Origin: Burkholderiaceae bacterium
Lineage (GTDB): Bacteria > Pseudomonadota > Gammaproteobacteria > Burkholderiales > Burkholderiaceae_E
Direction: 5' to 3'
Assembly: GCA_024711155.1 (NCBI GenBank)
Contig: JANJTK010000197.1
Span: forward strand, 4,739 to 68,738
DNA: 64,000 nucleotides
Shown here: positions 7,431-31,286 of the stretch, one piece after another
Layout of the letters: every line of letters starts with the position of its first letter
Position numbering within the stretch: position 1 is the stretch's first letter
The notes under the pieces: model-generated
The model's database searches: none
What the model was told of the DNA's origin: nothing
The model's input: the letters and a program-made list of their open reading frames with translations, nothing else
Translations under genes and position numbers: made by a program

Positions 7431-7478
7431 CAACCTGCGGGAAGCGGGGCGGCCGCTTCGGTAGAATTGCGGCGAGCC

Positions 7479-7554: not shown

Positions 7555-7628
7555 GAGAACGGCGGAGCGGCCCGCGAAGCATCCGGGTTCGGGGCTCGCT
7601 CATCGCGAGGCCCGCCGTCGAGTGCGGG

Positions 7629-8168: not shown

Positions 8169-8696
8169 GCTGTGCCTCCTCGAAGATGCCGCCCGCGGAT
8201 GAAGCTGCTCGCCACCTCCGGGTTCAAGGTTGCAGGCCCCCTCGATGAGGCTACGCCGACGCGATCGGCCGCGCAACCGACTGCGACGCGGTGCTGCGGG
8301 TCGCGGGTGGGCCGACTGGGCACCGAACCTTGGCGCGTGACGGCTACCAGGCTCCCCAGAACCTCGGGTTTCTACGGATATTCAGGACTGTCCTGGTGCC
8401 TATACTTCCTTTTGTTCCATCCATTAATCAGCGTTCCTCTAATGAAACATTGCTTGCTGTCTGTCGGCCCTGCTGCCGCAGGCGGGTCGCACCGACTCGC
8501 CGGTCGCAGCGCCCTCGCGACCGGCGGGTCACAGGGCTTCGGGCGGGCCTTGGCGCGTCACCCGGGGCAAGCCCGCGCTGCGGTGGAGATCGAGGGCATT
8601 TGCCCCGAGGTGATCGAGTTCGCCGAGGGGACGCAGCACGCGGGCGGCTACTGCCGCTCAGTGCGAGCTTCGCAATTCAACTGAAAGGGGGCGATC

Positions 8697-9221: not shown

Positions 9222-9225
9222 ACCA

Positions 9226-13456: not shown

Positions 13457-13469
13457 GGACGCCATCGTC

Positions 13470-14258
13470 ATGCGTATCGCGCTGGTCGGTTGCGGTGCCA
13501 TCGGGTCCGCGCTGCTGGAGCTGGTGAAGGACGATCCCGGCTTCGTGGTCGCGGCCATCGTCATGCGGGCCAGCACGGCCAGAGCGGTGAGCGGGCGTCT
13601 TGCGAGCGGTGCGCAGGTCGTGACGACGGTGCCGCTGCAGGGCATCGACCTCGTCGTCGAGGCCGCGGGCCATGCCGCCATCGAGCAGCACGTGTTGCCG
13701 GCCCTGCAACGGGGGGTGCCGTGCATCGTGGCTTCGGTGGGGGCGCTTTCCGCCCGGGGGCTGCCGGAGCGGCTCGAAGCCGCCGCGCGCGCAGGCGGCA
13801 CCCGACTGCAACTGATTGCCGGCGCCATCGGCGCGATCGACGCGCTGGCGGCCGCCCGCATCGGCGGATTGGAGAAGGTGCGCTACACCGGCCGCAAGCC
13901 GCCGCGCGCCTGGACTGGCACCGCCGCCGAGCGGGGCCGCAACCTGGGTGCACTTCTTGCGGAGACGGTGATATTCGAGGGGTCGGCCCGCGAAGCCGCC
14001 ACCCTCTATCCGAAGAACGCCAACGTGGCCGCGACGGTGTCGCTCGCCGGCCTGGGCCTCGACCGCACCATGGTGCGCTTGATCGCCGATCCGTCCCTGG
14101 ACGAAAACGTGCACGAAGTCGAAGCCGCGGGTGCCTTCGGAAGCTTCGCGCTGACCATGCGCAACAAGCCTCTGCCGGCGAATCCCGGGACTTCGGCGCT
14201 GACCGTCTACAGCGCGGTGCGCGCACTGCGCAATCGTGTCTCGGCGCTGTACATCTGA
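13470..14258 (+). CDS. aspartate dehydrogenase (NadX) family protein
   Basis: ORF 13470..14258. Rossmann motif IALVGCGAIGS is followed by YPKNANVAATVSLAGLG and NPGTSALTVYS, typical of the AspDH family. Confidence 0.78.
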   Translation: MRIALVGCGAIGSALLELVKDDPGFVVAAIVMRASTARAVSGRLASGAQVVTTVPLQGIDLVVEAAGHAAIEQHVLPALQRGVPCIVASVGALSARGLPERLEAAARAGGTRLQLIAGAIGAIDALAAARIGGLEKVRYTGRKPPRAWTGTAAERGRNLGALLAETVIFEGSAREAATLYPKNANVAATVSLAGLGLDRTMVRLIADPSLDENVHEVEAAGAFGSFALTMRNKPLPANPGTSALTVYSAVRALRNRVSALYI

Positions 14259-14266
14259 GTCCCGAC

Positions 14267-15745
14267 ATGAAGGCCCGCCTCGAACTTCTCCCGATCGACG
14301 TGGCAGGCGAATGGCGCCCGGGTAACGGCGAAGAATACGAAAGCCTCTACCCCGCCACCGGGGAACCCGTTGCCCGCCTGCGAGCGGCCAGTCCGGGCGA
14401 CGTGGACGAAGCCATCAACCGCGCCGACCGCACCTTCCGCAACAGCGGCTGGGCACAGATGCTGCCGCACGCGCGTGCCGCGGTGCTGCACCGCGTCGCG
14501 GCCCTGATCCGCGAGCGCTCCGAAGACCTCGCGCAGCGGCAGCGTCTGGACAACGGCAAGCCGATCAGCGAGACCCGGGCGCTGGTGGCGAGCGCCGCCG
14601 GCACGTTCCAGTATTTTGCCGCTGCGCTCGAGACGCTGGAGGAGGCCATCACCCCATCGCGCGGCGCCTGGGTGACGATGAGCGTGCACGAACCGATGGG
14701 CGTCGTGGCCGCGATCACGCCGTGGAACTCGCCGATCGCCAGCGAGGCGCAGAAGCTCGCGCCGGCGCGCGCAGCCGGCAACGCGGTGGTCGTGAAGCCG
14801 GCCGAGGTCACGCCGCTCATGGCGCTGGAGCTGGCGAGTATCTGCGAGGAAGCCGGTGTGCCCAGGGGCATGGTGAGCGTGCTGCCCGGCAAGGGCTCGG
14901 TCATCGGCGACGTCATCACCCGGCATCCGCTGGTCAGGCGAGTTTCGTTCACCGGCGGCACGGCCACCGGCAAGCACATCGCCCGCATTGCGGCCGACAA
15001 GATGATGCCGGTGTCGCTGGAGCTGGGCGGAAAGTCGCCCACCATGGTGCTCGAGGACGCGGATCTCGACCACGCGCTGGCCGGTGTGCTCTACGGCATC
15101 TTCAGCAGCTCGGGCGAATCGTGCATCGCAGGCTCGCGCCTGTTCGTCGCGCGTCGCATCTACGACGAGTTCGTCACCCGCCTGGCCCGGGCCGCCGGGT
15201 CGCTGCGCGTGGGCGATCCGTCCAGCGAGCGCACGCAAATGGGTCCGCTGATCACTGCCGGGCACCGCGAGAGCATCGAGCGCTACGTGGCGCTGGGCGT
15301 GAGCGAGGGCGGCCGCATCCGCAGCGGCGGCGTACGCCCGAGCGGCGCCGGCTTCGACCGGGGCTACTTCTACACCCCGACCATCCTCGAGGGCCTGGCC
15401 AACACGGCACGCGTCAGCCGGGAGGAGATCTTCGGCCCGGTGCTGGTAGCGATGCCCTTCGACACCGAGGACGACCTCATCGCCCAAGCCAACGACAGCG
15501 TCTACGCGCTTGCCGCCGGCGTGTGGAGCCGCGACTTCAAGCGCGCCTGGGCGCTCGGCCGCGCGGTGCAGGCCGGCACCGTGTGGATCAATACCTACAA
15601 GCAGTTCTCCGTTTCCACCCCATTCGGCGGCTGGCGCGACTCCGGCCTCGGCCGCGAGAAGGGCCGCGAAGGCATCTTCCAGTACATGCAGCAGAAGAGC
15701 CTGTACTGGGGCATCAACGAGGAGCCGCTCGCATGGGCGCGCTGA
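14267..15745 (+). CDS. NAD(P)-dependent aldehyde dehydrogenase
   Basis: ATG 14267 lies in ORF 13490..15745. Motifs ITPWNSP, ELGGKSP (catalytic Glu), GESCIAGSR (catalytic Cys) and EEIFGPV are present. Confidence 0.9.
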   Translation: MKARLELLPIDVAGEWRPGNGEEYESLYPATGEPVARLRAASPGDVDEAINRADRTFRNSGWAQMLPHARAAVLHRVAALIRERSEDLAQRQRLDNGKPISETRALVASAAGTFQYFAAALETLEEAITPSRGAWVTMSVHEPMGVVAAITPWNSPIASEAQKLAPARAAGNAVVVKPAEVTPLMALELASICEEAGVPRGMVSVLPGKGSVIGDVITRHPLVRRVSFTGGTATGKHIARIAADKMMPVSLELGGKSPTMVLEDADLDHALAGVLYGIFSSSGESCIAGSRLFVARRIYDEFVTRLARAAGSLRVGDPSSERTQMGPLITAGHRESIERYVALGVSEGGRIRSGGVRPSGAGFDRGYFYTPTILEGLANTARVSREEIFGPVLVAMPFDTEDDLIAQANDSVYALAAGVWSRDFKRAWALGRAVQAGTVWINTYKQFSVSTPFGGWRDSGLGREKGREGIFQYMQQKSLYWGINEEPLAWAR

Positions 15746-15800
15746 CGCCGGTGACCGCCGGCCCGGACTACCCGATCGAGCCCGCAAGGATGAGCGCGCC

Positions 15801-16866: not shown

Positions 16867-18006
16867 ATGAACATCGGCATCGCAGGCGCTGGCATCGGCG
16901 GCCTGGCCGCGGCGATCGCGCTGCGCAACATGGGGCACGAAGTGGTGCTGTTCGAACAGGCGCCGCGCTTTTCGCGCGTCGGCGCCGACATCAATCTCAC
17001 GCCGAACGCGGTCCGGGCGCTCGACGGCCTGGGTGTCGGCGACGCCCTGCGTGAGACCGCAGCGCGACCCACCCACCGCATCAGCCGAACCTGGGACACC
17101 GGCGAAGAGACCTCGCGTCTCGAAATGGCCGATGCGGCGCAGGCCCGGTATGGTGCACCGCAATTGACCCTGCACCGCGCCGACCTGATGGGCGCGCTCG
17201 AGGCGGCGGTGCCGGCCGGGATCGTTCGCTTCGGCAAGCGCATCGCCGGTGTCGAGCGCACGCCCGACGGCTCGAGCACGTTGAAGTTTGCCGATGGCAC
17301 CAGCGAAACGGTCTACCTGCTGGTCGGCGCGGACGGCATTCACTCGGTGGTTCGAGAAGCGATGTTCGGCCCGGAGAGCCCGAGGTTCACCGGCGTCGTC
17401 GCGTACCGGGCGGTGGTGCCGGCCAGCCGCCTGCAGGGCGTCTCGAACCTCGGCGCGTTCACGAAGTGGTGGGGACCGGACCCGGCGATCCAGATCGTGA
17501 CGTTTCCGCTGAATCGCGGACGGGACATCTTCATCTTCGCCACCGAGCCGCAGCACAGCTGGCGTCACGAATCGTGGACGATGCCCGGCGATGTGAAGGA
17601 ACTGCGCGCCTCCTACGCGAATTTTCATCCCGAGGCGCGCGCGTTGCTCGATGCCTGCGACGAGGTCCTGAAGTCGGCGTTGTACGTACGTGATCCGCTG
17701 CCGGTCTGGTCCGTCGGTCGCCAGACCCTGCTTGGTGACGCCTGCCATCCGATGACGCCGTTCATGGCGCAGGGCGCCGGCATGGCAATCGAGGACGCGA
17801 TCGTGCTGGCGCGCTGCCTGAACGACGATTCGCTGCCCGATCCCGCTGCACGGCTGGTCCGCTACCAGCAGTTGCGCCTGCCGCGCACGAGCCGGGTCCA
17901 GATCGGGTCGCGCGGCAACGAGTGGCTCAAGGAGGGCGGCAACGCGGATTGGGTTTACGGCTACGACGCCTGGGCGATTCCGCTGACGCCCGAGCCAGCC
18001 GGATGA
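16867..18006 (+). CDS. group A FAD-dependent monooxygenase (salicylate hydroxylase / 6-hydroxynicotinate 3-monooxygenase-like)
   Basis: ORF 16867..18006. Motifs IGIAGAGIGGLAAA (GxGxxG), GADGIHSVVR, LLGDACHPMTPFMAQGAGMAIEDA and a C-terminal WVYGYD are present. Confidence 0.85.
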   Translation: MNIGIAGAGIGGLAAAIALRNMGHEVVLFEQAPRFSRVGADINLTPNAVRALDGLGVGDALRETAARPTHRISRTWDTGEETSRLEMADAAQARYGAPQLTLHRADLMGALEAAVPAGIVRFGKRIAGVERTPDGSSTLKFADGTSETVYLLVGADGIHSVVREAMFGPESPRFTGVVAYRAVVPASRLQGVSNLGAFTKWWGPDPAIQIVTFPLNRGRDIFIFATEPQHSWRHESWTMPGDVKELRASYANFHPEARALLDACDEVLKSALYVRDPLPVWSVGRQTLLGDACHPMTPFMAQGAGMAIEDAIVLARCLNDDSLPDPAARLVRYQQLRLPRTSRVQIGSRGNEWLKEGGNADWVYGYDAWAIPLTPEPAG

Positions 18007-18127
18007 CGCAGATGCCAGCCGTTGCCGGCCCGGCCGCGGTCGTCGTGAGCCGAGACCGCCGGTGGCGGCGCAGTTCGCGATCCGGGTCGTTGACGTCCGC
18101 AGGGCTACGCTGTACGATTGCCATAAA

Positions 18128-18152
18128 TGAACAGCGTGTTCATTTATGAACA
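18128..18152 (+). promoter_or_regulatory. candidate operator: TGAACA-N3-TGTTCA-N4-TGAACA (inside the 11-3-11 palindrome ATAAATGAACA gcg TGTTCATTTAT, 18123-18147)
   Basis: Read directly from an AT-rich island in GC-rich DNA. It ends 44 nt upstream of the ATG of the molybdenum-enzyme large subunit. The same architecture recurs at 25791-25815 on the minus strand. Confidence 0.55.
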
Positions 18153-18196
18153 TCGCACCGGACGCCGACGACGCTCACCGACGGAGACCTGCTCGC

Positions 18197-20494
18197 ATGA
18201 CGCAGTCCAACGAATACGCGGTGATCGGAAAACCGACCCCGAAGAAGGAAGCGCAGGCAAAGGTCACCGGCGGCGCGCGCTTCGCCACCGACGTCTACCT
18301 GCGCGACATGCTGTGGGCCCGGGTCCTGCGCAGCCCCCTGCCCCACGCCCGCATCGTCTCCATCGACACCACGAAGGCGAAGCGCCTGCCCGGGGTGATG
18401 GCGGTGCTCACTGCGGACGACGTGCCGGAGGCGCGCTACGGCGCGCTGGTGCTCGACATGGGGATGTTCGCGCGCGGCAAGGTCAGGTACGTCGGTGAGG
18501 CCATCGCCGCGGTCGCTGCCGTCGACGAGGAAACCGCGGCGCGGGCGGTCCGCTTGATCGAGGTCGAATACGAGGAACTCCCGGCCGTGTTCGACCCGCT
18601 CGAGGCGATGCGCCCGGACGCGCCGCTCGTTCACGAGAACCTGCCGGGCTACAAGACACTCTTCGACCGCACCCGGCGCGCGATGACCGGCAACGTCAAC
18701 TACCAGGCCGACATCGAGTCGGGGAACGTCGACGAGGGCTTCGCGCAGTCCGACTTCGTCTACGAGGACACCTACGAGGTCCAGAAGCAGCATCCGTCCT
18801 ACATGGAACCGAACTCCACGGTCGCGCACCTGGACGAGGACGGCCGGCTCATCGTCTACAACACCACTCAGCGGCCTCACATCAACCAGGCGATCCTCTC
18901 GTCGCTGCTGGGGATCCCGATCTCGCGCATCCGCGTCATCCCTTGCCACGTCGGCGGCGGATTCGGCGGGAAGAACCGGACCCTGTCCGAACCAACGGCG
19001 GCCGCGCTCGCGTTGAAGACGAAGCGCCCGGTGCGCCTCACCTTCTCGCACGAGGAGGAGTTCACGTCGGCGACCACCCGGCACTCCGCGATCATCCGGA
19101 TGAAGACGGGGGTCAGGAAGGACGGCACCCTCGTCGCCACGCAGGTCAGCCTGTACTACGAATGCGGCGCCTACGCGCCGACCCCGAACGCGGTGTGGCT
19201 CGGCGCGATCTCGTCCTCCGGACCGTACCGGATTCCGAACGCCAGGACCGAGGCGTTCTCGGTGTACACGAACAAGATGATGGGTGGCGCCTTTCGCGGA
19301 TACGGCGCGCCGCAGTCGAATTTCGCGCGCGAATCGCAGATGGACCGGATCGCCCGCGACCTGAACATCGATCCGATCGAGCTGCGGCTGAAGAACTGCC
19401 TGGTCCCGGGCGACTCGCTGCACACCGGCCAGCCGCTGCACAGCGTGCGCATCAAGGAGGCGCTGCTCAGGGCGCGGGACATGGCGCAGTGGAACACGCG
19501 CAGGCACGACGGCAACCGCGCGCTCGGCGTCGCCTGCGGCATCTTCGCCTGCGGGGGCTTCGCGACCTCGGCCGTCGTCAAGCTGCACATGGACGGCACC
19601 GCGTTCGTCGCGACCGGCGCGATGGACATGGGCCAGGGCTTGCGCACCGTGATGGCGCAGATTGCCGCCGAGGAACTCGGCATGTCCGCCGACGACGTGA
19701 CGGTGGCGATCGGCGACACCGACCTGACGCCCTTCGACGTGGGAATCTTCGGCGACCGGGGAACGCACACCACCGGGTTGGCGGTCCAGATGGCTGCCGC
19801 CGACGCCAGGCAGCAACTGGTGGCCGCGGCCGCCGATGCGATGGGCGCGAAGGCCACCAACCTGGAGTTGCGGGACCGCACAGTGATCGATCGAAGCACT
19901 CCCGGGAAGATGCTCCATTTCCGCGACGTCCTGGGAGGCGGCCAGTACAAGAAGGGCGGACCGATCATCGGGAAGGCGTCGATCAACCCGTCCGACACGC
20001 CGTTCGATCCGAAGATCGTCCAGGGCGCGGCCTCGAGGATGTTCTCGACCTACACCTTCGCCGTGCACATCGCGGAGGTCGAGGTGGAGCGCGCGACGGG
20101 GATCACGCGCGTGCCGAAGGTCTACGCGGTTCACGACTGCGGCACCGTCATCAACCCCGCGGGTCTCGAGGGGCAGATCATCGGCGGCCTGGCCACCGGT
20201 CTCGGATACGCGCTGTACGAGGAGGTCCTGATCCAGAACGGCCAGGTCCAGAACCCGAGCTTTCTCGAATGCCGTCCGCCCACTGCCGTCGACATGCCCG
20301 CGATCGAGTGGGACGTGGTCGAGGAATTCGATCGCAAGGGGCCCTTCGGCGCCAAGGGCGTCGGAAACGTCTCGGTCATCAACATGGCGCCGGCCATCGC
20401 GAACGCGGTAGAGACGATCACCGGCGTCCGCGTGAAGTCGCTCCCGATCACCGCCGCGAAGATCGTCGGCGGCGCGACGGCCGAGGAGCAATGA
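18197..20494 (+). CDS. xanthine-oxidase-family molybdopterin (large) subunit, set 1 (4-hydroxybenzoyl-CoA reductase alpha-like)
   Basis: ATG 18197 lies in ORF 18146..20494 (765 aa). Motifs GKVRYVGEAIAAVAA, HVGGGFGGK, GGAFRGYGAPQ, AMDMGQG and GPFGAKGVGN are present. Confidence 0.85.
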   Translation: MTQSNEYAVIGKPTPKKEAQAKVTGGARFATDVYLRDMLWARVLRSPLPHARIVSIDTTKAKRLPGVMAVLTADDVPEARYGALVLDMGMFARGKVRYVGEAIAAVAAVDEETAARAVRLIEVEYEELPAVFDPLEAMRPDAPLVHENLPGYKTLFDRTRRAMTGNVNYQADIESGNVDEGFAQSDFVYEDTYEVQKQHPSYMEPNSTVAHLDEDGRLIVYNTTQRPHINQAILSSLLGIPISRIRVIPCHVGGGFGGKNRTLSEPTAAALALKTKRPVRLTFSHEEEFTSATTRHSAIIRMKTGVRKDGTLVATQVSLYYECGAYAPTPNAVWLGAISSSGPYRIPNARTEAFSVYTNKMMGGAFRGYGAPQSNFARESQMDRIARDLNIDPIELRLKNCLVPGDSLHTGQPLHSVRIKEALLRARDMAQWNTRRHDGNRALGVACGIFACGGFATSAVVKLHMDGTAFVATGAMDMGQGLRTVMAQIAAEELGMSADDVTVAIGDTDLTPFDVGIFGDRGTHTTGLAVQMAAADARQQLVAAAADAMGAKATNLELRDRTVIDRSTPGKMLHFRDVLGGGQYKKGGPIIGKASINPSDTPFDPKIVQGAASRMFSTYTFAVHIAEVEVERATGITRVPKVYAVHDCGTVINPAGLEGQIIGGLATGLGYALYEEVLIQNGQVQNPSFLECRPPTAVDMPAIEWDVVEEFDRKGPFGAKGVGNVSVINMAPAIANAVETITGVRVKSLPITAAKIVGGATAEEQ

Positions 20495-20495
20495 C

Positions 20496-21518
20496 ATGCA
20501 GGCCCTTCCGGAATTCGAATATTTCGAGCCCGCATCGCTGGAGCAGGCGGCGCAGTTGCTGCGCGACGTCGGCGAGCAGTGCATGGTGCTCGGCGGCGGG
20601 ACCGACCTCGTCCCGTCGATGCGGCAAGGCCTGTTCCGGCCGAAGTACCTGCTGTCGCTGCAGGCGATCGACGCGCTGCGCGACATCCGCTGGGACGATC
20701 GAACCGGACTGGACATCGGCGCACTCGCGACGCTGCGCAGCGTCGAGTCGCACCCCGACGTGCTGCGGCGCTTCCCGCTCGCCGCGCGTGGCGCTTTCGA
20801 GGTCGCGTCGCCGTCGCTCAAGCAAATGGCGACCGTCGGCGGCAACCTCTGCCTGGACACGCGCTGCTACTACTACAACCAGTCCGAGCAGTGGCGGGAG
20901 TGCAGCACCGCGTGCCTGAAGATGGGCGGCGAATTCTGCAAGGCGTCGCCGGGCGGGCGGGCGCGCAAGTGCTTCGCGGCGTTCTCGGGCGACCTGGCGA
21001 CGACGCTCGTCGCGCTCGACGCGCAAGTGACGCTGCTGTCGGGGCGAGGCGAGCGGACGCTCGCGCTGCGCGACTTCTACACCGGCGACGGCGCGAAGCC
21101 CAACGTCAGGCAACCCGACGAGATCCTCACCCGCGTGCTGATTCCGGCTGCCAGCAGCGGCCGCATCGGCTCGTACCGGAAGTACCGCATCCGCGGTTCG
21201 ATCGACTACCCGATTGCCAGTGTCGCGTTGACGGCGCGGCCGACGGCGAACCCGGACGTGTTCGAGGATCCGCGCCTCGTCGTCAGCGCCGTGACGACGC
21301 GGCCTGTGGTCGTCAAGGGCGTCGAGGAGCTCGTGGCCGGGAAGCCGCTGGACGAGGCGCTGATCGAGGCAGCCGCGCAGCTCGCCCGCCGCGCCGCCAT
21401 TCCGGTGGCGAACACCGCGGGGGTGCGCACTCACCGCAAGCACGTCGTCCACGAGTTCGCGCGGGAAGCGTTCGCCGACCTCGTCCAGCAGGCGCGAAGA
21501 GCGCCGCTGCCATCCTGA
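20496..21518 (+). CDS. FAD-binding (medium) subunit, set 1, with Cys-rich insertion (putative extra [4Fe-4S] site)
   Basis: ORF 20496..21518 starts 1 nt after the large-subunit stop. It has a CoxM/XdhB-like fold (VLGGGTDLV, VGGNL). A roughly 37-aa insert reads CLDTRCYYYNQSEQWRECSTACLKMGGEFCKASPGGRARKC. Confidence 0.85.
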   Translation: MQALPEFEYFEPASLEQAAQLLRDVGEQCMVLGGGTDLVPSMRQGLFRPKYLLSLQAIDALRDIRWDDRTGLDIGALATLRSVESHPDVLRRFPLAARGAFEVASPSLKQMATVGGNLCLDTRCYYYNQSEQWRECSTACLKMGGEFCKASPGGRARKCFAAFSGDLATTLVALDAQVTLLSGRGERTLALRDFYTGDGAKPNVRQPDEILTRVLIPAASSGRIGSYRKYRIRGSIDYPIASVALTARPTANPDVFEDPRLVVSAVTTRPVVVKGVEELVAGKPLDEALIEAAAQLARRAAIPVANTAGVRTHRKHVVHEFAREAFADLVQQARRAPLPS

Positions 21519-21532
21519 ACGGGGTCACGAAC

Positions 21533-22069
21533 ATGAAACAGGCGCTGACGCTGCAGATCAACGGCCGATCGCACGAGTTGCTCGTCGAGCCCCGCCGGAC
21601 GCTGCTCCAGGTGCTGCGCGAGGACCTCGCGCTGACGGGAACCAAGGAGGTCTGCCTGCTGGGATCCTGCGGCGCGTGCACCGTGCTCGTCGACGGCAAG
21701 CCGGCGCTCTCCTGCCTCGTGCTGGCAGTGTCGTGCCGCAACCGGCAGGTCACCACGATCGAGGGACTCGCGCGCGACGGCGAACTGCACCCGCTGCAGC
21801 AGGCGTTCATCGACAAGGGCGCAGTGCAGTGCGGCTACTGCACGCCCGGCATGATCATGGCCGGGAAGGCGCTGCTCGACGAGCACCCGGCACCGACCGC
21901 CGCGCAGGCGCGCCAGGCGATCGCGGGGAACCTGTGCCGCTGCACAGGATACGCGCAGATCGTCGACGCAATCGTGAGTGCAGGCGGCGCGTCGGGACCT
22001 TGCTGCGGCGGCGTGCCGGCGCAGCCCGCCCTTGCGGCCCCGTACCTGATGCCGGAGACCGGCGAGTAG
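21533..22069 (+). CDS. [2Fe-2S]-binding (small) subunit, set 1
   Basis: ATG 21533 lies in ORF 20579..22069. Cluster motifs [20 protein letters not shown] and CRCTGY are present. Confidence 0.88.
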
Positions 22070-22082
22070 GCGGTCCACCGAC

Positions 22083-23036
22083 ATGGACACCGCGTTCTCC
22101 GACGCGCCCGACATCAGGATCTCGGTACGCCAGGTCTTCGGATTCGACTCGGACCTTCAGGTTCCGGCGTTCAGCGAAGCGAGCGAGCACGTGCCCGATC
22201 TCGACGAAGCGTACTGCTTCGACCTCGAGACCACGATGGCGATCCTGGTCGCGTTCGCCCACAACCGTCGCCTGCTGATCCAGGGTCGCCACGGCAGCGG
22301 CAAGTCGTCGCACATCGAGCAGGTCGCAGCGCGCCTGAACTGGCCGACGGTGCGCGTCAACCTGGACGGCCAGATCACGCGCACCGACCTGATCGGCCGC
22401 GACGCCATCGTGTTGCGCGAAGGCAAGCAGGTCACGGAATTCCGTGAAGGCATCCTGCCGTGGGCCTTCCAGCATCCGGTCGCGCTCGTCTTCGACGAGT
22501 ACGACGCGGGCCGCCCGGACGTCATGTTCGCGATCCAGCGGGTGCTCGAACTCGAGGGCCGCCTGACCTTGCTCGACGGCAACCGCGTCCTGCGCCCCCA
22601 CCCCGGGTTCAGGCTCTTCTCGACGGCGAACACGGTCGGGCTCGGCGACGCCACGGGCCTGTACCACGGCACGCAGCTGCTGAACCACGCGCAACTCGAC
22701 CGCTGGAACCTGGTCGCACGACTCGACTACCTCAGGCCCGACGACGAGATCGGGATCGTCCTGGCGAAGACACGCGGATACGACGATGACGAAGGCCGCA
22801 AGGCCGTCGCGTCGATGGTCGCGATGGCGAACCTGACGCGTTCCGGTTTTGCCGCCGGGGACGTCTCCGCCGTGATGTCGCCGCGGACAGTCATCACCTG
22901 GGCCGAGAATGCGCGCCTCTTCGGCGACGTTCGACTGGCGTTCCGCCTGACCTACCTGAACCGCTGCGACGACTTCGAGCGACCGATCGTTGCCGAGTAC
23001 TACCAGCGCTGCTTCGACGACGACCTCGGCGCGTAG
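22083..23036 (+). CDS. cobS: CobS-like AAA+ (MoxR-class) ATPase
   Basis: ORF 22083..23036 starts 13 nt after the small-subunit stop. Walker A is [13 protein letters not shown] and Walker B is LVFDEYD. There is strong by-eye resemblance to aerobic cobaltochelatase CobS ([57 protein letters not shown]). Confidence 0.8.
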
Positions 23037-23061
23037 CGCAGCGACGCGCGAAGATCATCGA

Positions 23062-24948
23062 ATGTCCGAGTCCGATCCGGCGCACGATCCGCTCGCGCGA
23101 CTCTGCGCCGTGACCGCGGCGACGATGCGCGCGCTGGCGGGCCGCGCGGACATTCCGCTCCCGTTCGCCCCGGACCCCGTCGGCCCGGGGATCCCGGACG
23201 CCCGCACGGCAGAGCCGGACGCAGCTCTCGCCGGCGATGCCCTCGCCCGCTTTCGCGGCGACGCCGACGCAGTTGCGTTGCGCCTGCGCCTGCACGACCC
23301 CGCCCTTCACGCGCGCCTCGCGCCCGCCGGCGGCGACGCCCGCGCCGCCTTCGACGCCCTGGAGCAGTTGCGCGTCGAAGCGCTCGGCGCGATCCACATG
23401 CGTGGCGTGGCCGCGAACCTTCGCGCCGCCGCGCAGGCGCGATGGCATACGCGCTGGCTCGACGCCGCGCACGGTCGCGATACAGCGCACCGTGGCGACA
23501 CCGCACCCGTCGCCGACCTCCTGGCGCTGCTCGCACGCGAGCGGCTCACTGGCGACCGCTGCTGGCCGCGTGCGGCCGATGGCGTCATCGACCGCTGGCG
23601 CACCCGGCTCGATGCCAGCGTCGAGCGTCGACTCGATAGACTCGTCGACGCCGTCGCCGACCAGGACCGCTTCGGCGAGCAGGTGCGTCTCCTTCTTTCC
23701 GAGGCCGAGCTCGACGACGCATGCCCGCCGAAGATCGAGTCTTCCGGGGGAGCACCCGAACCCGACTGCGACCGTCCCGACGACACGCCTCGCGACGAGC
23801 GCGCGATCGACGCCGCCAGCGTGGAGCCCGACGCCGCGCCCACGCGTGCACTCGAGTCGAGTGCCCCGCTGGCCGGCCGCGACGAAGAGCACGGCACCGA
23901 GGCCGCCCCGCAGGGGCCGGCGCCCGCTGCCGTGCAATCGGCGCCGGCGGCGGCCTGCGCGCCGCCCTCTCGCTATCGGCCATTTACCACTGCGCACGAC
24001 GAGGTCGTCACGCCGGGCGACCTGCGCGATCGCGGCGAGTTGCTGCGGCTTCGCGCGCTTCTCGACGCCCTGATCGCGGCGAGCGGTCGCGCGACCTCCC
24101 GCGACGCCGCCCGCCTGCAGCGCCAGCTGCTCGCCAGCACCCCCCGGGGCTGGGACTTCGAGCTCGAGGCAGGCCTGCTCGACACCGCGCGCCTGGTGCG
24201 CACGATCGTTGCCCCCGACAACGCACGCATCTACAAGAGCGAGCGCGAGGAGCGCGTCCCCGAGACGACCGTCACGCTGCTGGTCGACAACTCGGGATCG
24301 ATGCGCGGGCGACCGATCGCGCTCGCAGCGATGACCGCCGACATCGTCGCGCGCACGCTCGAGCGCTGCGGCATCGGCACCGAGATCCTGGGCTTCACGA
24401 CCCGCGCATGGAAGGGTGGCCGTTCACGCAAGGACTGGGTCGCCCAGGGCAGGCCGCCGGCCCCGGGCCGTCTCACGGACCTGCGGCACGTCGTCTACAA
24501 GTCGGCCGGCACGCCGTGGCGGCGCGCCCGCGTCGGCCTTGCGCTGATGCTCGACGAGGGCCTGCTGAAGGAGAACGTCGACGGCGAGGCACTCCTCTGG
24601 GCGCACGCGCGGCTGCTCGCGCGCCCCGAGCGACGGCGGATCCTGATGGTGGTCTCCGACGGCGCCCCGCTGGACGACTCTACGACTTGTACGAACGCAC
24701 CCGACTACCTCGAACGGCACCTGAGAGAGGTCATCGCGTGGATCGAGCGCCTGTCCCTCGTCGAGTTGACGGCCATCGGCATCTGCCACGACGTCTCGCG
24801 CCATTACCGTCGGGCCCTGACCCTCGACGATGCGGAGCAGCTGGGCAGCGCGGTGATCCGGGAACTGGGTGCGCTCTTCTCGCCATCCCGGAGCTCGGGC
24901 AACCGGGGGTCGGAGCTGTCAGGCCGCCCTCGTCATGGACCCAGGTAG
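23062..24948 (+). CDS. cobT: CobT-like von Willebrand factor A (VWA) protein
   Basis: ATG 23062 lies in ORF 22990..24948 (628 aa). The C-terminal VWA domain has the MIDAS motif [14 protein letters not shown]. CobT-like blocks follow ([60 protein letters not shown]). Confidence 0.8.
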
Positions 24949-24970
24949 GCTCGACGCGCGCGATCGTCGT

Positions 24971-25765
24971 TCAGCTGTTGCCGCCCGAACTGCGGCGCAC
25001 CCGCACGAGTTGCGAGACGATCCCGACGGCAATCTCGGCGGGTGTGTTGTTGCCGACCTTCTCGCCGACGGGACAGACGATCCGGTCCACGAAGGCGGGG
25101 TCCAGCCCTTCCCGGGCCAGCTCGCGCCTGAGCGCCTGCCCCTTCGACTTGCTGCCGATGACCCCGAGATAGGGAAGCGGCAACGCGGCCGCGGCGATCG
25201 CCTTCAGCACCGGAACGTCGGTGGCGTGCCCCATCGTCATGACGAGCACCATCGATTGCGGGCGGACGCGCCGCACGCCCTCCTCGAACTCCGGCACCTG
25301 CACCGCTTCGAGCGCCTCCGCACGCGGCAGGCGGTCGAGCCAGTCAGCGCGGACGTCGATGCAGGTGACGCGGCAATCCAGTTCGACGAGGAAGCGGCAC
25401 AGCTTCTGCGCCACGTGCCCGGCGCCGAAGATGACGATGTCCCAGTCGAGATCGGGACGCTGCACTTCGAAGAAGACCGCGGCCTCGCCGGCACACGTCA
25501 TGCCCAGGTCCTTCATCAGATTGAACCGCGCGAAACGCGTACCCGCGCCGGCCTCGCCGGCAAGCATCTCCAGCGCGATCTCCCGGCATCGGCTCTCGAG
25601 CCGCCCGCCCCCGACCGTTCCGAAGAAGAGCCCGTCGCGGGTGAACAGCGCGCGCGCCCCCACGACCTGCGGAATGCTGCCGCGGGCATCGACGAGGGTG
25701 GCGACGCAAAACGCGGCTCGCGCGCTCAGCAGCGCCTCGATCTGCCTCAACAGGATCGCGTTCAA
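24971..25765 (-). CDS. xdhC: XdhC/CoxI family molybdenum-cofactor insertion chaperone
   Basis: ORF 24971..25765 with a TTG start and GGAGA 7 nt upstream. The N-domain reads ATLVDARGSIPQVVGARALF. The Rossmann-like C-domain reads IVIFGAGHVAQ. Confidence 0.8.
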   Translation of the reverse strand: MNAILLRQIEALLSARAAFCVATLVDARGSIPQVVGARALFTRDGLFFGTVGGGRLESRCREIALEMLAGEAGAGTRFARFNLMKDLGMTCAGEAAVFFEVQRPDLDWDIVIFGAGHVAQKLCRFLVELDCRVTCIDVRADWLDRLPRAEALEAVQVPEFEEGVRRVRPQSMVLVMTMGHATDVPVLKAIAAAALPLPYLGVIGSKSKGQALRRELAREGLDPAFVDRIVCPVGEKVGNNTPAEIAVGIVSQLVRVRRSSGGNS

Positions 25766-25790
25766 CCGGATCTCCGTGCCGCGGCCTCAG

Positions 25791-25815
25791 TGTTCAGACA
25801 TGAACATAATGTTCA
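25791..25815 (-). promoter_or_regulatory. candidate operator, second copy: minus strand reads TGAACA-N3-TGTTCA-N4-TGAACA
   Basis: The plus strand reads TGTTCA gaca TGAACA taa TGTTCA. It ends 25 nt upstream of the xdhC TTG start, in the same orientation relative to its gene as the site at 18128-18152. It includes the 8-1-8 palindrome ATGAACAT a ATGTTCAT (25800-25816). Confidence 0.55.
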
Positions 25816-25878
25816 TAAAAGTACAATCTGGCAGCCGAACCGTCAACCTCAGGAAGCGACCTGACAGGCCGCTGGCGG

Positions 25879-26703
25879 TCACGCGTCGTCCCGGTACCCG
25901 AACAACTGCGAGAGCACGCGCGCCGCTCCGGTCACCGCGCTCTCGACCCGGGCCGAGACCTGCGGGTCGAAGCGCGAGTCCGGTCCGGCCACGCTGATCG
26001 CCGCAATGACGCCGCCGAGACGGTCCCGGACCGCGGCGGCGCATGCGTCGACGCCGCGCTCGAAGCCCGACCGGCTCCACGCGCATCCGCGCGCCTGGTC
26101 CTCGGCAATCCGCCGGTCGAGCGCGGCGTGAGAGGCCGGCGTCTTCCCGGGCATGGAGGCGAGCGGCCCCTTTCCGAGAAGTTCGCGGCGACGCGCCGAA
26201 GGCAATCCTGCAAGCAGGATTCGCCCCGGGGCCGTGACGTGCGCAGGCACCCGGCTGCCGACGCGAATGTTGCTGACCAGCAGCGTGTTGGGTAACTCCT
26301 GCAGCAGGTACACCATCTCGTCGCCCGACAGGACTGCGAGATGCGCCGAGAACTGCGTCTCGGCGGCGAGTCGTGCGAGGATCGGCTGCGCCAGGCGCAA
26401 CAGGTCCCGGTCGCCGAGTGCGGCCGCCGCCATCGCGAGGAAGCGCGCTCCGACGCGGTATCCGGCTGCGCCCGGCGCGCGCTCGACGATTCGCTCGTGC
26501 TCGAGCGTGTCGAGCAGCCGGGCGAGCGTGACCCGATTGATGTCGAGTTGTCGCGCCAGGTGACTCAGTGGAATCGTTACTCCGCCGGCCGCTATGTAAT
26601 CGAGCAGCCGCATTGCGCGCTGCACCGGGGAGATCAGGTAGACCCCCTGGGCATGCTCCGGACCGGACGATTCGTCCGCCGGGCCGGACTTGCCGAGTGC
26701 CAT
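25879..26703 (-). CDS. IclR family transcriptional regulator
   Basis: From ORF 25879..26898, trimmed to ATG 26703 (GGGAGG 9 nt upstream). The product (MALGKSG...) has an HTH (LSHLARQLDINRVTLARLLDTLEHERIV) and an effector domain (GSRVPAHVTAPGRILLA). Confidence 0.8.
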   Translation of the reverse strand: MALGKSGPADESSGPEHAQGVYLISPVQRAMRLLDYIAAGGVTIPLSHLARQLDINRVTLARLLDTLEHERIVERAPGAAGYRVGARFLAMAAAALGDRDLLRLAQPILARLAAETQFSAHLAVLSGDEMVYLLQELPNTLLVSNIRVGSRVPAHVTAPGRILLAGLPSARRRELLGKGPLASMPGKTPASHAALDRRIAEDQARGCAWSRSGFERGVDACAAAVRDRLGGVIAAISVAGPDSRFDPQVSARVESAVTGAARVLSQLFGYRDDA

Positions 26704-26966
26704 TGTTCGCATCCTCCCGAAGACCGCGGCGCCGCCGACGGGCCGGCCCGGGCGGTCGCTGCTGCATCGCCGCAAACGTGCGGAACAGGCTCCGATTCTA
26801 GCCCGCTCGGCATCCTGCCCCGACTCATTCCAGAATCTCGTTCCTTTTTTGACTTCGGTCAATGACGCGTCGCGCCGGCAGGGAATAGCGTGAGGCACAC
26901 AACAAGACCACGCACTGTGAGCGCCCCACTGCGCCGCGGCCGAGTCGCGAATCGGAGACCCGCATC

Positions 26967-27539
26967 ATGCTGATCGAGGGCCAGTTCCCGGTCGCCGCTG
27001 CGCCGGAGAGCCTGCTCGGCTGCCTCTTCGACGCGAAGTTGATGGCCTCCTGCCTGCCAGGCTGCGAGACCCTCGAGGCGATCGACGCGGATCGTTATCG
27101 GGCCGTGGTCGTCGTGGGAATGGCCGGCATCAAGGCCCGCTTCGATCTCGAGGTGGAAATTACCCGGCGCGACGCGTTCGACATCTGGACGGTTACCAAG
27201 GGCGCCGAGGGCGGACAGGCGAGCACGCTGCGCGCCGAGAGCCAGGTGAGCCTGCACCCGATCCCGGAAGGCACCCTCGTGAGCTACCGCTCCGATGTGT
27301 CGCTGACCGGTCGGCTCGGGCGGTTCGCACTGGGCATGATGAAGAAGAAGGCGCAGAGCATGGGCGACGAGTTCGCCGCGAACCTGCGCCAGAAGCTGGA
27401 ACAGGTCGGGACCGGCGCCGCGACGCCGCCTGCCGAGGCCGTCCCGGCGCAGCCGGCGCCGCCGCCCGCGTCGCGATCCTGGTGGCGCCGGCTCCTCGCG
27501 TGGCTGCGCGGCGAGCGCGCGGTGCAGAAAGCGGACTGA
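26967..27539 (+). CDS. CoxG-like SRPBCC family protein
   Basis: ORF 26967..27539 with GGAGA upstream. The product reads MLIEGQFPVAAAPESLLGCLFDAKLMASCLPGCE ... GRLGRFALGMMKKKA, with a Pro/Ala-rich tail ending in an amphipathic segment. Confidence 0.75.
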   Translation: MLIEGQFPVAAAPESLLGCLFDAKLMASCLPGCETLEAIDADRYRAVVVVGMAGIKARFDLEVEITRRDAFDIWTVTKGAEGGQASTLRAESQVSLHPIPEGTLVSYRSDVSLTGRLGRFALGMMKKKAQSMGDEFAANLRQKLEQVGTGAATPPAEAVPAQPAPPPASRSWWRRLLAWLRGERAVQKAD

Positions 27540-27556
27540 CTGCGAAGGAATCGGGC

Positions 27557-28408
27557 ATGAGCGCACTGCAAGGACTGTATCGCCCCACCACGGTGGACGA
27601 AGCCACTGCCCTTCTTCGACAGGATCCGGACGCCAAGCCGATGTCGGGCGGGGCGACGCTCGTCGCCATGCTCAACGCCGGAGTGATCGAGCCCGCTGCG
27701 CTGGTCTGCCTGGATCGGATCGAAGAGCTCAAGGGCATCTCGGTATCCGGCGACGGCGGCGTGCGCATCGGAGCCTTCACCCGGCACCGGGAGACGGCGC
27801 AATGCCGGCTCGAGCTGGGTGAACTCGGCGTCGTGCGTCACGCCGCCTCGCAGATTGCAAACGCGACGGTGCGCAACATGGGGACGATCGGAGGGTCGAT
27901 CTCCTTCGCGGACCCGGGCCTCGACTACCCGCCCGCGCTCGTCGCAGCCGGCGCCGCGATCGAGATCGCCTCCGTCGACGGCCGCCGCAGCGTGGCCGCG
28001 CAGGAGTTCTTCGTCGACTGGTACACGACCGCGCTCGAGCCGGGCGAGATCGTCACGGCCGTCATCCTGCCGCCGCCCGAGGGAGGCCAGGGGCTTTACC
28101 TCAAGCACTGCCGCGTCTCGGGCGACTATGCGACGGTCTCGGTGGCGGTGAGCGCGACCGATTCCGGTCGCCTGCGGGTCGCGATCGGCGGGTGCGGTCC
28201 CGTCCCGATTCGCGACGACGAAGCCGACACGATTCTCTCCGCGGACCGCAGCGATGCGGCCTGCGCGCGCGCGGGAGCCCTGCTGCAGGACAGAGCCGAC
28301 CCGCTCGACGACGTACGCGGCAGCGCGGACTACCGCCGCAGACTCATTCCTCGCATGCTCGCCAGTGCCCTTCGCGAGCTCGCGTCCATCAAGGGAGGTG
28401 CCGCGTGA
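27557..28408 (+). CDS. FAD-binding (medium) subunit, set 2 (CoxM-like, no Cys insertion)
   Basis: ATG 27557 lies in ORF 27482..28408. Motifs MSGGATLV, NMGTIGGSISFADPGLDYPPAL and a C-terminal GSADYRRRL are present. Confidence 0.85.
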   Translation: MSALQGLYRPTTVDEATALLRQDPDAKPMSGGATLVAMLNAGVIEPAALVCLDRIEELKGISVSGDGGVRIGAFTRHRETAQCRLELGELGVVRHAASQIANATVRNMGTIGGSISFADPGLDYPPALVAAGAAIEIASVDGRRSVAAQEFFVDWYTTALEPGEIVTAVILPPPEGGQGLYLKHCRVSGDYATVSVAVSATDSGRLRVAIGGCGPVPIRDDEADTILSADRSDAACARAGALLQDRADPLDDVRGSADYRRRLIPRMLASALRELASIKGGAA

Positions 28409-28914
28409 ATCTGCCTTCGTCCACGGCCGAGGCGACCATCCTCACCCTGCGCATCAATGGCGAGCAGGTGCAGGTGCGCGCCGGCCTGCGCGACACGCTG
28501 TTGACCGTGTTGCGTGACCAGCTGCAGCTGACCGCGGCCAAGCGGGGCTGCAACCAGGGCGTCTGCGGCGCCTGCACCATCGAGATCGACGGCAGGCCGG
28601 CACGCGCGTGCCTGACGCTGGCGCGCGCCTGCGAGGGCGCCGACGTGCGCACGCTGGAGGGCATGAGCGACAGTCCCGCAATGAAGGCGCTGCAAGACGC
28701 CTTCGCCAGCCACCAGGCGTTCCAGTGCGGGTTCTGCACCCCCGGAATGCTGGTCAGCGCCCGCTCGCTCCTCGAAGGGAATCCTGCGCCGGACGAGGCC
28801 GCAATCCGGGTCGCGATGTCGGGCAACCTGTGCCGGTGCACCGGCTATGTCAGCATCATCGCCGCCGTCGACGCGGCGGCCTCGACACTCGGCGATCACG
28901 GAGCGAGCTCATGA
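28405..28914 (+). CDS. [2Fe-2S]-binding (small) subunit, set 2
   Basis: GTG 28405 (GTGA overlap, RBS AAGGGAGG) lies in ORF 28192..28914. Motifs CNQGVCGACT, CGFCTPGM and CRCTGY are present. Confidence 0.85.
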   Translation: MNLPSSTAEATILTLRINGEQVQVRAGLRDTLLTVLRDQLQLTAAKRGCNQGVCGACTIEIDGRPARACLTLARACEGADVRTLEGMSDSPAMKALQDAFASHQAFQCGFCTPGMLVSARSLLEGNPAPDEAAIRVAMSGNLCRCTGYVSIIAAVDAAASTLGDHGASS

Positions 28915-31286
28915 GCACCGCAACCCGCGACGGTCTCGACCGGCCCGTGCCCGGCGATCGGCAGGCGGTCGGGCGTCCGATCCAGCAGATCGAGGCCGCC
29001 GAGAAGTTGAGCGGATCGGCGCAATACATCGCCGATCTGTACCGACCCGGCATGCTGTACGGGGCGATCGTCCAGAGCACGCACGCGCACGCGCGCATCC
29101 GCGGTTACGACCTGTCGGACGCCCTGGCACTTGCAGGCGTGCGCGCGATCGTCACCGGCGACGATCTCGACGAACACCACCGGATGGGCGCGTTCATCAA
29201 GGACGAGCCGGGCTTTGCGAAGGGGAAAGTGCGCTACGTGGGCGAGATCGTCGCCGGCGTCGCGGCCGACACTGAAGAGATCGCGCGCGCGGCGGCGCGC
29301 CTCGTCAAGGTCGACTACGAAGTGCTGTCCCCGGTCCTGGATCCCGCCGACGCGCTCGGATCCGACGCAGCGCGCGTGCATGAACGAGCCGAATCGTACG
29401 AAAAGGTCTTCGATTCCGGGACGGCCGGCAACGTCTGCTCGCGGACCGCATTCCGGCAGGGCGAACCCGACGGTGCGTGGGCCGACTGCGACATCGTCGT
29501 CGAGGGGGAGTACCAGACCCAGGCGCAGGCGCACCTGTCGATCGAGCCGTGCGGCGCGCTGGCGGAGGTCGACGCCGCTGGCCGGGTGACGCTGTGGTCG
29601 GCGAACCAGTCCGTGTTCAGGGTCCAGGCCAGCGTTTGCGAGTCGCTGGGACTGCCGATGACGAAACTGCGCTGCGTGACGCCGCGCATCGGCGCGGGGT
29701 TCGGGAACAAGATGGAAGCGCACGTCCAGCCGCTGGTCGTGCTGCTCGCCCTGAAGGCCCGGCGTCCGGTCAAGCTGATCCTGAGCCGAGAGGAGGACTT
29801 CGAAACGGTGCGCGCCCGGCATCCGTTCAGGATCCGCATGAAGACGGGGGCGCGCAAGGACGGAACCCTGGTGGCGCGCGAGACCGAATTGCTGCTCGAC
29901 GGCGGTGCCTACGGCGACGACAGTCCCGGCGTTCTCGGATACGCGCTGCTCATGAACTGCGGCCCCTACCGCATCCCGAACGTGCACGCGCACGGCCAGG
30001 TCGTCTACACCAACAAGATGCGCTTCGGCGCCATGCGCGGCTTCGGCGTGCCGCAGGTCACCTTTGCGTCGGAACAGCAGCTCGACGAGATCGCTCGCAG
30101 GCTCGACATGGATCCGCTCGCACTGCGGCGCAGGAACATGCTGTCGCCGGGCGATCCCTGGTTCGGCTACCAGGAAGTGCGCTCGAACGGCCTGGCGCAG
30201 TGCGTCGACATCGTCGAGCGCGAGTCCGGCATGGCGGCGCGCCGTACGCGGGGCTGCCACGACGACGAACGTCCCGGGCGTCGACGCGGATTCGGCGTCG
30301 CGCTGACCGCCCACATCAGCGGGCTGCTCTCGTCCGGCGCCATCGTGCGGATGCTCGAGGACGGAAGCGTGCTGCTGAATACCGGTGCAGTCGACATCGG
30401 GCAGGGCTCGAACACGGTGCTGACGCAGATCTGCGCGGAGTCGCTGAAGCTGCCGGTGGAGCGTGTGGCCATCGCCAGCCCCGACACCGACGGTTCTCCG
30501 TACAACTGGGGCACGACGGCCAGCCGCGTCACCTACGTCACCGGGCGCTCGGTCGCCAAGGCCGCTGCCGAGGTCGAGCGCAAGCTCAAGGAGCACGCGA
30601 GCGAAATGCTCGAGTGCGGCATCGACGATCTCGAACTGCTGCCGGGCGGGAAGGTCGCGATCAAGGGCGTCGGGCAACGCTCGGTCAGTTTCGCCGCGAT
30701 TTCCGGGCGCGCCCACTGGGCTGCGGGCGGTCCGATCATCGGCACCGACAGCTGGGTCTTCGACCAGAAGACCTTCGACCCCAAGCGCTGCACCACGCTC
30801 GGGCTCCCGTTCCCGCAGATCGGAATCTTCAGCTTCGGGGCCCTCGTGACCGAGGTCGAGATCGACGACGCGACCGGCCGCGTTCGCGTGCTGGGCGCGT
30901 GGTCGGCCTGCGACCTCGGCTACGCGATCAATCCCGCCATGGCGAGGGGACAGGTCGAGGGCGCGTTCGTGCAGGGCATGGGCTACGCGCTGACGGAGGA
31001 ACTGGTCTGGGACGGCGGCCGTCTCGCCAATCCCACGCTGATGGACTACAAGATCCCGACGGTCGCGGAACTGCCCGCCACGCTGCGCGCCTACCTGGTC
31101 GAGTCGGAGGAGCCGAGCGGGCCGTTCGGAGCGAAGAGCGTCGGCGAACTCGGGATCAACGGTGTCGCGGCAGCCATCGCGAACGCCATTGCCGATGCCA
31201 CCGGCGTGCGCCTGCACAGGCTTCCGATGACACCGGAACGTGTCCTCGACGGGTTGCTGGCGGACAGCGCCGGTGCGGGGCATTGA
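28911..31286 (+). CDS. xanthine-oxidase-family molybdopterin (large) subunit, set 2
   Basis: ATG 28911 (ATGA overlap) lies in ORF 28608..31286 (791 aa). Motifs GKVRYVGEIVAGVAA, RIGAGFGNK, GAMRGFGVPQ, VDIGQG and GPFGAKSVGE are present. There is no CODH-type AYxCSFR loop. Confidence 0.85.
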   Translation: MSTATRDGLDRPVPGDRQAVGRPIQQIEAAEKLSGSAQYIADLYRPGMLYGAIVQSTHAHARIRGYDLSDALALAGVRAIVTGDDLDEHHRMGAFIKDEPGFAKGKVRYVGEIVAGVAADTEEIARAAARLVKVDYEVLSPVLDPADALGSDAARVHERAESYEKVFDSGTAGNVCSRTAFRQGEPDGAWADCDIVVEGEYQTQAQAHLSIEPCGALAEVDAAGRVTLWSANQSVFRVQASVCESLGLPMTKLRCVTPRIGAGFGNKMEAHVQPLVVLLALKARRPVKLILSREEDFETVRARHPFRIRMKTGARKDGTLVARETELLLDGGAYGDDSPGVLGYALLMNCGPYRIPNVHAHGQVVYTNKMRFGAMRGFGVPQVTFASEQQLDEIARRLDMDPLALRRRNMLSPGDPWFGYQEVRSNGLAQCVDIVERESGMAARRTRGCHDDERPGRRRGFGVALTAHISGLLSSGAIVRMLEDGSVLLNTGAVDIGQGSNTVLTQICAESLKLPVERVAIASPDTDGSPYNWGTTASRVTYVTGRSVAKAAAEVERKLKEHASEMLECGIDDLELLPGGKVAIKGVGQRSVSFAAISGRAHWAAGGPIIGTDSWVFDQKTFDPKRCTTLGLPFPQIGIFSFGALVTEVEIDDATGRVRVLGAWSACDLGYAINPAMARGQVEGAFVQGMGYALTEELVWDGGRLANPTLMDYKIPTVAELPATLRAYLVESEEPSGPFGAKSVGELGINGVAAAIANAIADATGVRLHRLPMTPERVLDGLLADSAGAGH

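Follow-up and report, generated by a model that had tools for sequence, protein, structure and literature searches.

A CobS/CobT branch encoded within xanthine dehydrogenase-family operons of Burkholderiales and its possible role in molybdoenzyme maturation

Introduction

The AAA+ protein CobS and its partner CobT have, to our knowledge, a single known job, namely driving CobN in aerobic vitamin B12 synthesis. Here we describe a CobS-like and a CobT-like gene that lie in a block with the structural genes of a molybdoenzyme of the xanthine dehydrogenase (XDH) family, found in a stretch of 64,000 nucleotides from a Burkholderiaceae bacterium (contig JANJTK010000197.1; the whole stretch is referred to as the window). 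The structure of CobS/CobT and its motor-adaptor-effector logic were described only in 2026, for Brucella melitensis (9ujv, 9uka; bioRxiv 10.64898/2026.07.21.739949). Compared with the cobaltochelatase CobNST of P. denitrificans and Brucella, the pair of the window is alike in Pfam architecture, Walker motifs, salt-bridge residues, shaft region and MIDAS (the metal ion-dependent adhesion site), but it differs in forming a separate clade, in scoring below the equivalog cut-offs and in carrying clade-specific substitutions. It is furthermore found inside XDH-family operons and not in the BolA/J-domain/L28 neighbourhood, and there is no CobN within the 64-kb window.

Within the XDH family itself, the BchI-like AAA+ protein CoxD and the VWA protein CoxE complete the Mo-Cu site of carbon monoxide dehydrogenase (CODH); they are encoded downstream of the L/M/S genes and are needed if the Mo site is to be completed after translation (PMC4240915, PMC3471820). 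This system of Oligotropha carboxidovorans, which also includes CoxF, resembles the present one in that both place a chelatase-like AAA+ protein and a VWA/MIDAS protein in an XDH-family operon, but the families differ, since CoxD is BchI/MoxR-like and CoxE belongs to VWA_CoxE, whereas our pair matches only CobS_N/AAA_5 and CobT/CobT_C. Indeed, no Pfam match to MoxR/AAA_3 or VWA_CoxE was found for either protein or elsewhere in the window; a CoxF homologue is likewise absent from it, and the putative client enzymes are without the CODH Cu-binding loop. CbbQ/CbbO and NorQ/NorD share with the pair an AAA_5-class hexameric motor and a VWA adaptor, which remodel a folded metallo- or carboxylase enzyme, but CbbQ and NorQ give only weak PDB matches to the CobS-like protein (E = 1e-6 to 1e-8) and the adaptor architecture and clients are different. 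The likeness to these three systems, already drawn in a preliminary description of the window, is a reasonable one. Finally, the XdhC/PaoD chaperones, which insert the molybdenum cofactor (Moco), are also dedicated accessories encoded beside XDH-family structural genes, but their fold is unrelated and they are no ATPases; since an xdhC gene is present in the window alongside the pair, the latter is no simple replacement of XdhC.

That an AAA+/VWA pair serves a metalloenzyme is already known, but the combination of the CobS/CobT family with an XDH-family client appears to be new. A full-text search of the literature for CobS/CobT in connection with xanthine dehydrogenase, MoxR/CoxD, molybdenum hydroxylase or 4-hydroxybenzoyl-CoA reductase (4-HBCR) returned nothing relevant and found no paper linking CobS/CobT to XDH-family enzymes, in agreement with the earlier statement that such a function is undescribed for the family.

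Organization of the locus

The pair and the genes preceding it are the following.

18090..18118, + strand: promoter-like site TTGACG-17-TACGAT 5' of the first gene (consensus match only, weak evidence)
18197..20494, + strand (open reading frame from 18146): molybdopterin-binding large subunit (MoL), XDH-family type A, 4-HBCR-alpha-like; Pfam Ald_Xan_dh_C, MoCoBD_1 and MoCoBD_2
20496..21518, + strand: FAD-binding medium subunit; Pfam FAD_binding_5 (213 residues on 168 profile positions) and CO_deh_flav_C
21533..22069, + strand: 2Fe-2S small subunit, C-terminal tail YLMPETGE; Pfam Fer2 and Fer2_2
22083..23036, + strand: CobS-like AAA+ motor of 317 aa, with Walker A at 22284-22310 and Walker B at 22485-22505
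23062..24948, + strand: CobT-like adaptor, 628 aa; M48C-like N domain, disordered linker, shaft at about 24148-24270, VWA domain with MIDAS DxSxS at 24286-24309

According to the open reading frames (ORFs) and their translations these five genes are packed together on the + strand. The gap between the 2Fe-2S gene and the CobS-like gene is 13 nt (22070-22082), that between the CobS-like and CobT-like genes is 25 nt (23037-23061), and 22 nt separate the CobT stop from the end of a convergent xdhC. The two gaps, and an xdhC immediately after the pair, are as given in the preliminary description. The promoter-like site is the sole such + strand site across 17800-27200, and within the five-gene block the + strand shows neither a promoter- nor a terminator-like site, although both observations are weak evidence.

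Among the approximately 45 ORFs of the 64-kb window, Pfam searches found no cob gene, no CobN, no B12-dependent enzyme and no CoxD/E/F, and no cobalamin riboswitch was found in the window with Rfam. The lack of cobN and other cobalamin genes reported earlier is thereby confirmed, but it is no telling sign, since canonical alphaproteobacterial cobS-cobT genes are also found away from cob genes and the absence of a nearby cobN therefore means little.

The CobS-like and CobT-like proteins

All motifs and sequence blocks previously quoted for the two proteins are found in the translations, including Walker A (GRHGSGKSS, aa 68-76) and Walker B (LVFDEYD, aa 135-141) of the CobS-like protein and the MIDAS motif DNSGSMRG (aa 409-416) of the CobT-like protein. 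The former matches the Pfam families CobS_N (PF12556, E = 6e-17) and AAA_5 (PF07728, E = 6e-13), and the latter CobT (PF06213, E = 2e-54) and CobT_C (PF11775, E = 1e-85). In a PDB search both reach E = 1e-140 to the Brucella melitensis CobS and CobT chains, the CobS-like protein aligning without gaps to Brucella CobS over residues 5-315 and the CobT-like protein to 9uka_G over residues 16-622. The only strong NCBIfam match is TIGR01650 for the CobS-like protein, at 519 bits against an equivalog cut-off of 558.55, and TIGR01651 for the CobT-like protein, at 596 bits against 759.05. With TIGR01650, three further CobS proteins of the XDH-linked kind reach 517-536 bits and two canonical alphaproteobacterial ones 586-591, and it should also be mentioned that a CobS of the SAR11 type falls under the cut-off as well (532 bits). 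Hence the two may be called genuine CobS/CobT proteins at the family level, as Pfam and PDB indicate, but not as equivalogs, since both score below the cut-offs and belong to a separate clade.

The Brucella CobSTN structures (bioRxiv 10.64898/2026.07.21.739949) served as the template for mapping residues. Kept are the CobT-contacting CobS residues D110, I112, R147, D263, E308, Q311 and R312, their CobT partners R34, R76, D80 and N130, and the full CobT MIDAS set of D422, S424, S426, N518 and D546. Variation in the CobS-CobT interface is confined to the shaft contacts S102 and I104 of CobS, the second of which is lost. As judged by this mapping, Walker motifs, interface and MIDAS site are intact. 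Furthermore, the ratio of non-synonymous to synonymous substitution rates (dN/dS) is 0.08-0.25 for CobS and 0.35-0.49 for CobT, and as both are below 1 the two genes are, by this measure, under purifying selection.

Conservation of the linkage

The embedding of the pair in a molybdoenzyme operon, noted from the one locus, is conserved and specific to one clade, and when other genomes are surveyed for cobST beside genes of this enzyme family the linkage recurs in two architectures. The type A order MoL-FAD-FeS-CobS-CobT of the window is repeated in independent contigs, with CobS 81% and 75% identical, the latter from a Burkholderiaceae metagenome-assembled genome (MAG). In the type B order, CobS-CobT-FAD-FeS-MoL, the pair comes first and is often found behind a TetR gene (L040 from Burkholderiaceae, L041 from Zeimonas, L074 from Betaproteobacteria PRO1, and L167 and L184). 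The type B large subunit is just 27-33% identical to MoL of the window and nearest to glyceraldehyde-dehydrogenase/CODH-like models, and the type B FAD subunit is without the Cys insert described below.

Types A and B form one clade. With 97 dereplicated pairs its neighbour-joining support is 100% (100 bootstraps) for each of CobS, CobT and the concatenate, and the same clade is obtained after addition of four more Burkholderiaceae pairs (CobS 100%, CobT 79%, concatenate 100%). XDH-family genes occur within 10 kb of all seven of the 97 pairs that belong to this clade and of one of the 90 outside it (Fisher p = 6e-10, a value inflated by relatedness and by the post-hoc choice of clade). Every clade member examined lies within an XDH operon of the same strand or immediately next to one, while the flanking genes differ from locus to locus. 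Conversely, among the matches listed in genome and metagenome scans, not one of about 130 alphaproteobacterial pairs lies within 10 kb of an XDH gene; the metagenome scan with CobT gave, among the matches listed, nearly exclusively marine alphaproteobacterial pairs, none of them XDH-linked, and serves as a negative control only. The linkage is not due to chance, and the existence of two architectures with two enzyme subfamilies is a stronger argument for this than the Fisher p-value. A PLSDB search revealed no cultured strain with the XDH-linked clade; the pairs that it gave are more distant and stand in other contexts.

One further locus (L049, an Oceanicoccus MAG, 3951-15771) has XDH-family operons on both sides of CobS-CobT, on the opposite strand. 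It was not counted as support because it is outside the clade and its sister L051 is without XDH genes, and it could represent chance or a third, independent association.

Clade-specific sequence change

Shared derived changes of the clade are A59V, G60A, V67L, Y72R/H, T79S, H100Q, T193A, M208L, I213L and the loss of shaft contact I104 in CobS, and include A331P and N363A in CobT. When the regional divergence of CobT is taken relative to that among canonical sequences, extra divergence is greatest in the shaft (ratio 0.67) and the disordered linker (0.66), followed by the pre-shaft (0.75), the CobT_N beta-sheet (0.82) and the VWA domain (0.83), and the remainder of CobT_N diverges at the canonical level. 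In the holoenzyme CobN docks on the CobT VWA face beside the MIDAS and on the CobT_N sheet (bioRxiv 10.64898/2026.07.21.739949). The divergence pattern fits a change of effector, without constituting proof of one.

Possible function of the pair

On balance, and by no means firmly, we favour the notion that the pair represents a paralogous CobS/CobT branch whose target has changed from CobN to the XDH-family molybdoenzyme of the same operon, in parallel to CoxD/CoxE. Judging from gene context, the XDH-linked branch, which is found in several Burkholderiales genomes, probably helps to mature or activate the co-encoded enzymes. Re-targeting is favoured because of the operonic embedding, the two conserved architectures within one clade, the about 130 alphaproteobacterial pairs without XDH genes and the intact machinery, and furthermore because of the regional CobT divergence, the sub-equivalog scores and the CoxD/CoxE precedent.

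By analogy with the Brucella CobSTN structures we infer a possible mechanism, including the identity of the client, the direction in which the pair acts and the chemistry involved. Six CobS-like subunits would assemble into an ATP-driven ring that grips the shaft of the CobT-like protein, and the VWA/MIDAS face of the latter would dock onto the molybdoenzyme in a folded apo or immature state, most likely onto the large subunit. ATP hydrolysis would then partly open the docked subunit, so that the Mo site could be completed, either by Moco insertion together with XdhC or by sulfuration, or so that dead enzyme could be reactivated.

Several observations weigh against re-targeting. Type A MoL orthologues at 64-78% identity retain MoL-FAD-FeS with no CobST adjacent (L171 from a Rhodospirillaceae MAG, L172/L173, L174, L175/L176 from a Burkholderiales MAG, and L177), so that, barring a supply in trans, the enzyme family of other hosts can do without the pair. 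No subunit feature was found that separates CobST-linked from CobST-less operons. In addition, the CobS-like protein is 74-75% identical to canonical CobS, so that it may have retained a cobaltochelatase function, the CobS/CobT trees are neighbour-joining only, and the evidence is gene context and sequence throughout. Because the orthologous XDH operons lack CobST, the pair is, as far as these comparisons go, a lineage-specific accessory and no general requirement of the enzyme subfamily.

This dispensability is what one would expect of an accessory activase, and the pair might accordingly act on the co-encoded molybdoenzyme as an activase or as a remodeller for repair and quality control, in the manner of CbbQ/CbbO on Rubisco, freeing inhibited or desulfo enzyme instead of taking part in the biogenesis of the cofactor. 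CobS indeed belongs to the AAA_5 fold class of CbbQ, NorQ and GvpN, weak as the PDB matches to CbbQ and NorQ are, and Moco insertion is already covered by the separate XdhC of the window. We nonetheless consider this role unlikely, though worth keeping in mind, since the nearest functional precedent for the enzyme family, CoxD/CoxE, is biogenetic (PMC4240915).

It is rather improbable that the pair is an ordinary cobaltochelatase motor working with a CobN whose gene lies elsewhere, in which case the location in XDH operons would reflect co-regulation or historical accident. The strong family membership with 74-75% CobS identity, the retention of all MIDAS and, apart from shaft contacts S102 and I104, all CobS-CobT interface residues, and the fact that canonical cobS-cobT is likewise unlinked to other cob genes all agree with such a motor. 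It is, on the other hand, in poor agreement with the separate, well-supported clade, with the occurrence in two independent operon architectures and two XDH subfamilies, with the gaps of 13 and 25 nt and the scores below equivalog cut-offs, with the absence of B12 riboswitch, cob genes and B12-dependent enzymes from the window, and with a divergence of shaft, pre-shaft and VWA domain that exceeds the canonical baseline. That the pair has another client, or is a general metallochaperone module carried with catabolic islands by horizontal transfer and adjacent to XDH genes without direct interaction, can be called improbable indeed, because the Burkholderiaceae pairs in unrelated contexts that suggest it (Pandoraea ureG, Caballeronia CobW-like GTPase with amidohydrolase, B. 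multivorans xsc-pta-tauE) lie outside the XDH-linked clade, and because all examined clade members are in or beside a same-strand XDH operon despite differing flanks, even though the window itself is a mosaic catabolic island.

If re-targeting holds true, a natural CobS/CobT branch serving another effector would illustrate the way in which AAA+/VWA chaperone pairs switch clients, and it would be a second, independent case after CoxD/CoxE of an ATP-driven step maturing XDH-family molybdoenzymes, which could explain the poor heterologous expression of some enzymes of this family. On the practical side, cobS/cobT matches in Burkholderiales genomes and metagenomes should not count as evidence of B12 synthesis.

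The co-encoded molybdoenzyme

The start of MoL at 18197 is implied by an identical database protein of 765 aa (P0121). Its best NCBIfam match is TIGR03194, and the co-encoded enzyme fails all three 4-HBCR cut-offs, with 578 of 994 bits for TIGR03194, 252 of 404 for TIGR03195, the model matched by the FAD subunit, and 180 of 258 for TIGR03193. It shares with 4-HBCR an HcrB-like Cys-rich insert of about 40 aa in the FAD subunit (nt 20850-20972), but differs from it by an Asn in place of the catalytic Glu. This residue, N741 as counted from 18146, is found in the motif GAKGVGN (nt 20348-20368) and stands opposite E726 of HcrA in an alignment with PDB 1rm6_A, and the aligned XDH-family enzymes have Glu at the position, as in E726 of 4-HBCR and GAKGVGE of CODH. 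The Asn is retained by every orthologue as far down as 64% identity, whether CobST-linked or not, which suggests an unusual chemistry of this uncharacterised 4-HBCR-like subfamily. The Asn-for-Glu replacement, the Cys insert of the FAD subunit and the YLMPETGE tail of the small subunit are all subfamily traits, common to linked and unlinked operons. The extra Fe-S cluster was considered as a shared client feature and rejected, since type B enzymes are without the insert and insert-bearing orthologues often without CobST, and the role in assembling this cluster that the preliminary description had proposed for the pair is unlikely on the same grounds.

CobS/CobT pairs in other contexts

In Alphaproteobacteria the typical neighbourhood is BolA, J-domain protein, CobS, CobT and ribosomal protein L28. 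A J-domain gene is found around cobS-cobT in 43 of 52 long GTDB loci (among L007-L086), mostly together with BolA and L28, and the same context recurs in L169, L170 and L182 and for the close canonical homologues P0012, P0021 and P0247. The block occurs in SAR11-type single-cell genomes as well, and the lack of cob genes around it hints that the role of the pair extends beyond B12 synthesis. The contexts of L039, L052 and L055, which are non-alphaproteobacterial CobST pairs with no XDH genes, contain no cob genes and share no theme.

In Pandoraea oxalativorans plasmid pPO70-1 (L181, 8376-11820), ureG and a cobS homologue overlap by 11 nt and a cobT homologue comes next, beside ureD-ureABC; this pair groups with alphaproteobacterial sequences, outside the XDH-linked clade. 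A separate clade with 100% bootstrap has the order IclR-CobS-CobT and a strongly diverged CobT (35-40% identity), and comprises loci from B. multivorans (L178), Caballeronia sp. NK8 (L179) and Cupriavidus sp. EM10 (L180). The first two are found beside xsc-pta, with tauE as well in B. multivorans, where a molybdenum enzyme of the dimethyl sulfoxide reductase type lies upstream; in Caballeronia the unit is convergent with genes for a CobW-like GTPase and an amidohydrolase.

A broader notion, which we put forward tentatively and hold to be possible rather than likely, is that CobS/CobT is not a dedicated cobalt-chelatase motor but a portable motor-adaptor cassette that has repeatedly been plugged into different metalloenzymes. 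Its clients may include XDH-family molybdoenzymes in two architectures, urease in Pandoraea, and the amidohydrolase with the CobW-like GTPase in Caballeronia, and the near-universal alphaproteobacterial block may then reflect a housekeeping role in metallocentres or protein remodelling beyond B12.

The wider window

Downstream of the pair the following features are found.

24971..25765, - strand: XdhC-family Moco insertion chaperone; Pfam XdhC_CoxI and XdhC_C; TIGR02964 154 bits against a cut-off of 161.6
25879..26898, - strand: IclR-family regulator, start codon uncertain; Pfam annotation
26967..27539, + strand: CoxG/SRPBCC protein, first gene of a second XDH-family operon; Pfam annotation
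27482..31286, + strand: second XDH-family operon, with FAD subunit at about 27482-28408, 2Fe-2S subunit at about 28430-28914 and large subunit at about 28950-31286

The second operon (coxG, FAD, 2Fe-2S and large subunit; 26967-31286) follows the CobST pair at a distance of about 2 kb, and its large subunit keeps the catalytic Glu (GAKSVGE). Two neighbouring XDH-family gene sets are also found in the relatives L001, L005, L171, L172 and L175. The XdhC-IclR-CoxG set 3' of CobT is likewise present in the relative L002, which has a CobS protein (P0002) identical to that of L001; the downstream context differs between the two, with ABC-transporter genes in L001 and XdhC-IclR-CoxG in L002, and this points to a recent rearrangement around the 3' end of the operon.

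The window has a G+C content of approximately 70%, and its roughly 45 ORFs make it a mosaic catabolic island by Pfam, with POR/IOR-type oxidoreductases, UbiD/UbiX, hydantoinase A/B-like proteins, CoA ligases, and TRAP and ABC transporters. Finally, a stop-free, coding-like frame of about 770 codons without a Pfam match (4278-6590) precedes an enoyl-CoA hydratase domain, which occupies residues 770-1031 of the frame 4278-7430; the stretch may represent a gene that escaped annotation, or an artefact caused by the high G+C.

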